Assembly: GCF_000027125.1 (NCBI RefSeq)
Contig: NC_017626.1
Reading direction: 5' to 3' (one strand)
Length of the DNA: 64,000 nt
Source of the DNA: Escherichia coli 042
GTDB lineage: Bacteria > Pseudomonadota > Gammaproteobacteria > Enterobacterales > Enterobacteriaceae
How positions within the stretch are numbered: position 1 is the first letter of the stretch; each line of letters opens with the position of its first letter. The translations under genes were made by a program, and so were the position numbers. Positions 61,386 to 62,610 of this stretch are shown here, in pieces. A model generated the notes under the pieces. The model saw only the letters and a list, made by a program, of their open reading frames with translations. It ran no database searches and was not told the DNA's origin.

Positions 61386-61889
61386 ATGACTGAAATGGCT
61401 AAAGGAAGCGTGACGCATCAGCGGTTAATCGCTTTATTATCACAAGAAGGTGCTGACTTCCGCGTCGTTACCCATGAAGCGGTAGGTAAATGTGAAGCGG
61501 TGTCAGAAATTCGTGGCACCGCTTTAGGCCAGGGGGCTAAGGCACTGGTATGTAAAGTCAAAGGCAATGGTGTAAATCAACATGTTCTGGCGATCCTCGC
61601 GGCCGATCAACAGGCCGATCTGAGCCAACTCGCCAGCCATATAGGCGGATTACGCGCTTCGTTGGCCAGCCCGGCGGAAGTCGATGAACTCACAGGCTGT
61701 GTCTTCGGCGCGATCCCCCCTTTCAGCTTCCATCCAAAACTCAAACTGGTTGCCGATCCCCTACTCTTCGAACGATTTGATGAAATCGCCTTCAATGCAG
61801 GCATGCTGGATAAATCCGTTATTTTGAAAACCGCGGATTATTTGCGCATTGCGCAACCAGAACTGGTCAATTTCCGACGCACTGCGTAA
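61386..61889 (+). CDS. yeaK: YbaK/ProX-family aminoacyl-tRNA deacylase-like protein
   Basis: 167 aa ORF. Confidence 0.8.
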   Translation: MTEMAKGSVTHQRLIALLSQEGADFRVVTHEAVGKCEAVSEIRGTALGQGAKALVCKVKGNGVNQHVLAILAADQQADLSQLASHIGGLRASLASPAEVDELTGCVFGAIPPFSFHPKLKLVADPLLFERFDEIAFNAGMLDKSVILKTADYLRIAQPELVNFRRTA

Positions 61890-61994
61890 CTAGCCTGTCC
61901 GTTCGATAAGAAGAACGGACAAAACCAGCACAACAGCAATGGCAAAAAACGATGACGTGATAATCAGTGTCTCGACGAACATTTGATCGTTCAT
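61890..61994 (-). CDS. yoaI: Small membrane protein (34 aa)
   Basis: Hand translation of the minus strand gives [34 protein letters not shown] followed by TAG; below the 60 aa cutoff of the ORF track; stop abuts the yeaK stop. Confidence 0.7.
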
Positions 61995-62163
61995 AGTATG
62001 CCCCCGGGAGATAGCTGTTTTCACGTTATTGTTAGCGTGCACAAATTGCAGTTTGATGACAGTTCGCCTGATTTTTTATGCAAAAAACGTAAAGATTTTC
62101 TACTTCCTTCCTGCAGCAAGCGTAAAGTAAGCAGGCTTATTATTCTTTGGCAAGGAAACCACG

Positions 62164-62610
62164 ATGTTTGATGTCACTTTGCTGATCCTGCTCGGGTTAG
62201 CTGCGCTGGGCTTTATCAGTCATAACACCACTGTCGCCGTTTCAATTCTGGTGTTAATCATTGTCCGCGTCACACCGTTAAGCACCTTTTTCCCGTGGAT
62301 TGAAAAACAGGGGCTAAGTATCGGGATAATCATTCTGACGATTGGCGTTATGGCCCCCATCGCCAGCGGGACGCTACCGCCCTCAACCCTGATTCACTCG
62401 TTTCTGAACTGGAAATCGCTGGTGGCAATTGCAGTAGGCGTTATTGTCTCCTGGCTAGGTGGGCGCGGCGTGACGTTAATGGGCAGCCAGCCGCAACTGG
62501 TCGCCGGGCTGCTGGTGGGCACTGTTTTGGGCGTGGCGCTGTTTCGCGGAGTACCGGTTGGCCCGCTTATTGCCGCGGGTCTGGTTTCGCTGATTGTGGG
62601 GAAACAGTAG
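62164..62610 (+). CDS. yeaL: DUF441-family inner membrane protein
   Basis: 148 aa hydrophobic ORF. Confidence 0.85.

Follow-up and report, generated by a model that had tools for sequence, protein, structure and literature searches.

The 34-codon gene yoaI between yeaK and yeaL of Escherichia coli 042: identity, conservation, Pho box and 3' hairpin

The reading frame and its identity

The 64,000-nucleotide stretch of Escherichia coli 042 DNA analyzed here (the window) carries on its minus strand, between yeaK and yeaL, an ATG-to-TAG reading frame of 34 codons followed by the TAG stop, which reads ATG AAC GAT ... GGC TAG from its start codon at 61994 (Table 1). The initial annotation, made from the sequence alone, had placed a small membrane-peptide frame on this strand between these two genes, and both the sequence and its translation are exactly as claimed. 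It had also described the stop codon as adjoining that of yeaK, and this is precisely the arrangement found: the TAA of yeaK occupies 61887–61889, the complement of the TAG of yoaI occupies 61890–61892, and zero intergenic bases separate the two. On its other side, the divergent intergenic region 61995–62163 houses the yoaI promoter. At the far end of this gene cluster yeaL (plus strand) and nimR (minus strand) also converge, their 3' ends overlapping by 44 nt at 62567–62610, an overlap that is identical in the K-12 annotation; taken with the yeaK/yoaI abutment, this places convergent pairs that overlap or lack any gap at both ends of the cluster.

Table 1. Features at the yoaI locus; positions are counted from the first nucleotide of the window.
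Feature	Position	Strand	Basis and remarks
yeaK	61386..61889	+	RefSeq annotation of a 99.9% identical genome, and ORF list (167 aa); convergent with yoaI
yoaI coding sequence	61890..61994	−	Translation; L001 and K-12 have the identical RefSeq yoaI product
81-nt imperfect hairpin	61870..61950	−	Spans codons 16–34, the stop and 20 nt that are antisense to the 3' end of yeaK
Glu31 codon (GAA)	61902..61904	−	Sequence; conserved, and required for YoaI to bind and activate EnvZ (PMC11429745)
Predicted single transmembrane helix, codons 10–30	61905..61967	−	Best 21-residue window, mean Kyte-Doolittle 2.85
Shine-Dalgarno-like GGGGG	62001..62005	−	6 nt upstream of the ATG; sequence
Putative −10 element TAACAAT	62028..62034	−	10 bp separate it from the 18-bp Pho box upstream
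Pho box (PhoB binding site) CTGTCATCAAACTGCAAT	62045..62062	−	Sole consensus match in the window, in the correct orientation upstream of yoaI
yeaL	62164..62610	+	RefSeq annotation; 148 aa; DUF441 membrane protein; divergent from yoaI

The frame corresponds to a gene that is already known by reference annotation, by a curated family model and by published function. In the K-12 MG1655 annotation it is b1788 (NP_416302.2, “protein YoaI”, 1874078–1874182), and the region was found by megablast in 5411 of 5426 complete E. coli genomes; in all records listed among these matches the frame is annotated “yoaI: small membrane protein YoaI”. The best-matching genome, that of a swine isolate with 99.9% identity, has a yoaI coding sequence of the same length, with the same abutment to yeaK and an identical product. 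Exact-sequence look-up returned the peptide as UniProt YOAI_ECOLI and as “MULTISPECIES: small membrane protein YoaI”, with occurrences on 1000 contigs or more. The NCBIfam equivalog model NF041475, “small membrane protein YoaI”, aligns residues 1–34 to its positions 1–34 of 34 with a score of 79.8 bits (E = 1.1e-22) against a curated cut-off of 45 bits. Every feature of YoaI membership that can be read from sequence is present, namely the HMM score, a length of about 34 amino acids with one transmembrane segment, the residues Ser26, Val27 and Glu31, and the position between yeaK and yeaL. Compared with YoaI of E. coli K-12, the amino-acid sequence, the yeaK-yeaL position, the abutment of stop codons and the Shine-Dalgarno sequence are the same, while the Pho box is one base apart. 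No evidence counters this identity.

The initial annotation had presented the frame as a missed gene, a description that holds for the open reading frame track and fails for the annotation, which has yoaI/b1788 in all E. coli records examined. The mechanical ORF list begins the frame farther upstream, at a GTG at 62042, for a product of 50 residues; this is shorter than the default cut-off of 60 amino acids, so that the track would miss yoaI on length.

Precomputed Pfam tables label the YoaI orthologues (L003 and L004–L010) as PF23689, “YldA”. The YldA-like peptides of this family are, like YoaI, short enterobacterial peptides with a single helix. Direct hmmscan of E. coli YoaI against Pfam returned no family match, and none to PF23689 at E values up to 1; among the homologues scanned only one (P0016) matched PF23689, with 13.3 bits and E = 0.1 against a gathering threshold of 27. 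Membership of YoaI in PF23689 was rejected on these below-threshold scores, and the label may reflect either a distant relationship between YoaI and YldA or the composition of a hydrophobic helix.

Hydropathy, conservation and selection

The yoaI frame was compared with the other short frames of the window, using a set of 247 ATG-initiated ORFs of 25–50 amino acids on both strands. Only one of the 247, yoaI itself, reaches a 19-residue mean Kyte-Doolittle hydropathy of at least 2.4 anywhere in the window (2.72), and the GRAVY value of its product is 1.38; the frame is more than a chance feature. The description of the product as a single-helix small membrane protein, put forward from the sequence alone, agrees with the hydrophobic core at residues 10–30, with the full-length match to NF041475, and with the published recovery of YoaI-SPA in membrane fractions (PMC11429745). 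Charged residues lie toward the two ends of the peptide, D3 and E8 at the N-terminus and E31 and R32 at the C-terminus, a distribution compatible with the cytoplasmic C-terminus of the published topology, which we infer for YoaI here.

Among 1.84 billion cluster representatives searched with phmmer, 23 clusters of YoaI homologues were found, with 56–97% identity. In their alignment, conservation sets in exactly at Met1 and follows the pattern MND.MF.ETLII.SSF..IA..LV.SV..LE, and the N-terminal extensions that gene callers assign to some homologues are mutually unrelated and not conserved. In the alignment of 24 sequences, conservation of S26 and V27 reaches at least 90% and E31 is found in most sequences; these three residues, all present in the window peptide, were reported as invariant across 57 orthologues (PMC11429745).

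The nucleotide differences point to selection on the protein. Against K-12, the yoaI coding sequence differs at 3 of 105 nt, and all three are synonymous third-position changes (Phe6, Val22, Thr33); beyond these, K-12 differs at −5 relative to the start codon (61999, A/G) and at one base of the Pho box, within its second half-site. Between the window and its orthologues dN/dS ranges from 0 to 0.23, with 0.23 for L003 and 0.08 for the Enterobacter copy L006, and this substitution pattern indicates that yoaI is under purifying selection.

Synteny extends across several of these orthologous loci. At L003, whose product has 62% identity, the neighbors are DUF441/yeaL, yoaI, tRNA_edit/yeaK and GGDEF/dgcJ, and L003, L007 and L008 all have the orthologue flanked by DUF441 and tRNA_edit genes. 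The coding 3' ends of yoaI and yeaK at L003 (2597–2605) overlap by 9 nt rather than abut, which shows that the spacer-free convergent arrangement is conserved while its exact geometry is not. On the contigs of Enterobacter sp. ENT03 and its relatives (L004–L006, 2501–2608) the yoaI orthologue lies away from yeaK and yeaL, at a non-syntenic site with an MFS transporter gene on one side and a DUF444 (yeaH-like) gene on the other; the orthologue of ENT03 (L006) bears the YoaI name. This Enterobacter copy keeps a Pho box, CGTCATAAATATGTCAC, followed after 10 bp by TCATAAT as the likely −10 element. Because the Pho box is kept at a non-syntenic locus, yoaI and its control by PhoB move together.

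These observations bear on whether the frame might be a chance, untranslated ORF in the region 3' of yeaK and upstream of yeaL. The frame is indeed very short, and earlier studies had failed to detect SPA-tagged YoaI in rich medium or under several stresses (cited in PMC11429745). Against this stand substitutions that are all synonymous or strongly biased toward synonymous change, a frame that is conserved in other genera and even at one non-syntenic site, and a hydropathy that is unique in the window; the published western blot and the ribosome peak at the start site (PMC11429745) refute it directly, and we give a chance origin practically no credence.

Translation start, Pho box and 3' hairpin

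The start codon of yoaI is preceded by a Shine-Dalgarno-like sequence (Table 1), and the orthologues carry GAGG or AGGTG at an equivalent distance. From the putative transcription start through codon 15, the RNA has less structure than its dinucleotide shuffles in the window, in K-12, in L003 and in L006 (z of +0.7 to +1.5), an openness often seen where translation truly begins. A first fold of 156 nt had suggested a hairpin over the Shine-Dalgarno sequence or start codon that could account for condition-specific translation; it was excluded by folds beginning at the putative transcription start in these four loci.

At PhoB-activated promoters, a Pho box made of two 11-bp repeats with a CTGTCAT core replaces the −35 element and lies about 10 bp upstream of the −10 element. 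The region upstream of yoaI fits this plan, with a Pho box and a candidate −10 element at a spacing of 10 bp. Searching with the consensus CTGTCATAWAWCTGTCAY and allowing at most 3 mismatches gave a single match in the 64-kb window, where about 0.22 would be expected by chance. The core TGTCAT...TG..AT is conserved in six of six aligned loci, and TAACAAT or TATCAAT (TAxCAAT) in five of the six; the second half-site reads CTGCAAT in 042 and CTGCCAT in K-12, which leaves the 042 site one base further from the consensus. From this arrangement the −10 element is assigned provisionally and transcription would start near 62021. A generic scan for σ70 promoters found none for yoaI, as is expected of a Pho-box promoter that has no −35 element.

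Genome-wide and reporter studies agree with this assignment. A PhoB ChIP-seq peak at yoaI/yeaL (1874218) has the K-12 site TGTCATCAAACTGCCATT as its motif, yoaI RNA measured by RNA-seq amounts to 12,266 in the wild type against 28 in a phoB deletion, and occupancy of yoaI by RNA polymerase and σ70 depends on PhoB (PMC10294691). A PyoaI-YFP reporter is likewise PhoB-dependent (PMC11429745), and an array study in O157:H7 found YoaI induced by phosphate starvation (PMC3978041).

The geometry of the promoter, together with the conservation described above, also decides on the N-terminus of the product. It could be proposed that the real protein is a form of 50 residues (16 + 34) initiated at the GTG at 62042, given that no stop interrupts the frame for 27 codons ahead of the yoaI ATG, that GTG occurs there at distances of 10 and 16 codons, and that some GenBank submissions call this longer form (P0025, P0034). 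This GTG (62040–62042) falls after the Pho box but ahead of the −10 element, upstream of the putative transcription start, and the longer start should therefore be off the PhoB-dependent mRNA altogether. Moreover, amino-acid conservation begins only at Met1, with extensions that share nothing, in L003 a stop closes the frame 4 codons before the orthologous ATG, the NF041475 model is 34 positions long, and the retapamulin ribosome-profiling (Ribo-RET) peak falls at the annotated start (PMC11429745). The 50-residue form was rejected as an annotation artefact on conservation and promoter geometry; that it is the real product is highly improbable, and the 34-residue YoaI is retained.

The 3' half of the yoaI mRNA can fold into an imperfect hairpin of 81 nt, the core of which is the perfect inverted repeat GTCCGTTC / GAACGGAC. 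Its minimum free energy is −33.2 kcal/mol (z = −5.2), and 0 of 200 shuffles were as stable; the plus-strand RNA of the same segment, 61870–61950, forms the inner stem only (z = −3.5). The K-12 hairpin has 3 substitutions, all in the stem, and is equally stable (−34.3, z = −4.8), and a relative with 88% amino-acid identity retains the long hairpin (z = −3.3). It is absent from the more distant orthologues that were folded, where z lies between −0.2 and +1.2. A terminator scan found no intrinsic terminator on either strand between the convergent yeaK and yoaI, and the hairpin was rejected as a canonical terminator since it has no U-tract: on the minus strand its U-run comes before the hairpin, and on the plus strand it is an A-run that follows. 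Its arms encode Ser26-Val27-Leu28 and Glu31-Arg32-Thr33, so that constraints on the protein confound the conservation of the hairpin. The hairpin is a lineage-restricted feature, and it is unlikely to be a functional RNA element as opposed to a by-product of coding constraints. If it were functional, it might serve as a 3'-end or stability structure, free of a U-tract, for the convergent yoaI and yeaK transcripts, or its stability might depend on Mg2+ and contribute to the rise in YoaI at low Mg2+ described below.

Published function and proposed mechanism

To the reading frame, family membership, helix, Shine-Dalgarno sequence, Pho box, purifying selection and synteny described here, the literature adds PhoB regulation, translation, membrane localization, and the interaction with and activation of EnvZ. 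The principal study is that of Vellappan et al. (PMC11429745), which according to PMC12648545 was published in Sci Signal in 2025. Two checks had been proposed for the frame when it was noticed in the sequence, ribosome profiling and epitope tagging at the native locus, and for both a positive result was already in print. The Ribo-RET signal at the yoaI start is raised about 12-fold under low Mg2+ (PMC11429745), which contradicts the absence of a translation signal that had been named as grounds for abandoning the gene, and YoaI-SPA expressed from the chromosome was detected by western blot in membrane fractions at low Mg2+ (PMC11429745).

Two environmental signals act on yoaI. Low phosphate induces its transcription in a PhoB-dependent manner, and low Mg2+ raises the protein post-transcriptionally and independently of PhoQ (PMC11429745). 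In two-hybrid assays, YoaI interacts with EnvZ and not with PhoQ or PhoR (PMC11429745). Deletion of yoaI lowers an omrB reporter 1.4–2-fold, while overexpression raises it more than 7-fold in a manner that requires envZ; reporters of ompC and ompF shift reciprocally, dependent on both envZ and Glu31, and the substitutions E31A and E31Q abolish both the EnvZ two-hybrid signal and the activation of omrB (PMC11429745). The functional model of YoaI comes mainly from the study of one laboratory, and the effect of the deletion on omrB is modest.

Overexpression of YoaI also causes a growth lag of 8–10 h for which PhoQ is needed, while EnvZ and Glu31 are dispensable (PMC11429745). A lag that is independent of EnvZ and dependent on PhoQ means that YoaI has a second activity. 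The lag could be taken to mean that YoaI is a peptide of the type I toxin kind, curbed by antisense transcription from yeaK and by the structure of its own mRNA, with the effect on EnvZ being secondary; the convergence of yoaI and yeaK with no gap between their stops and the strongly structured 3' half of the yoaI mRNA would suit such a peptide. The same kind of lag was, however, produced by 5 of the small proteins tested, all 5 of them membrane-associated (PMC11429745), and is therefore not specific to YoaI. Nor does the locus resemble a toxin-antitoxin module: yoaI is a single-copy gene of the core genome with a conserved Pho box, a dedicated antitoxin sRNA is neither known nor visible, and a promoter scan found no promoter-like site for an antisense RNA at yoaI. 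The translation-initiation region is open rather than sequestered in four loci, only close relatives keep the hairpin, and the sole antisense partner is the 3' end of the yeaK mRNA, yeaK being absent as a neighbor at the Enterobacter locus. Assignment to a type I toxin-antitoxin system was rejected for want of a dedicated antisense RNA or sRNA and because the initiation region is unsequestered, and we consider a toxin of this kind very unlikely.

As a modulator of EnvZ, YoaI can be set beside other proteins that act on sensor kinases. Like MgrB and SafA, which act on PhoQ, MzrA, which acts on EnvZ, and connectors of the PmrD type, it is small and membrane-borne (PMC11429745, PMC12648545), and it shares with SafA and MzrA the trait of being induced by one two-component system, here PhoR-PhoB, while modulating the kinase of another, EnvZ (PMC11429745). 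It has no sequence relationship to MgrB, SafA, MzrA or the PmrD-type connectors, and MzrA has 127 amino acids to the 34 of YoaI. The contact proposed between YoaI and EnvZ is the glutamate of the cytoplasmic tail and not a periplasmic domain (PMC11429745).

These findings can be assembled into a mechanism. Transcription would start at a promoter that depends on PhoB and lies between yoaI and yeaL, with the Pho box in place of a −35 element, so that phosphate starvation, sensed by PhoR-PhoB, would turn yoaI on. Translation would begin at the ATG at 61994, and Mg2+ limitation would also raise YoaI abundance by a post-transcriptional route. On insertion of the protein, its short C-terminal tail, E31-R32-T33-G34, would come to lie on the cytoplasmic side, and YoaI would bind the sensor kinase EnvZ and stimulate EnvZ-OmpR output. 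That the 34-codon frame is yoaI (b1788), an enterobacterial gene that is conserved and encodes a single-pass inner-membrane protein of 34 residues, we regard as very nearly certain, with the whole PhoB/EnvZ model included in that judgment.

As a discovery yoaI matters little, because the gene, its family and its function are on record. Its value is one of calibration, for a genuine membrane-protein gene of 34 codons, hidden by length cut-offs, was recognized from raw sequence. The signals that set this real small gene apart from chance frames are a unique hydropathy, a well-spaced Shine-Dalgarno sequence, an unstructured start, an upstream transcription-factor site, conservation from Met1 and a low dN/dS. 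For the organism itself, the YoaI of the proposed mechanism would, through EnvZ, couple phosphate and Mg2+ stress to the regulation of porins and the envelope.
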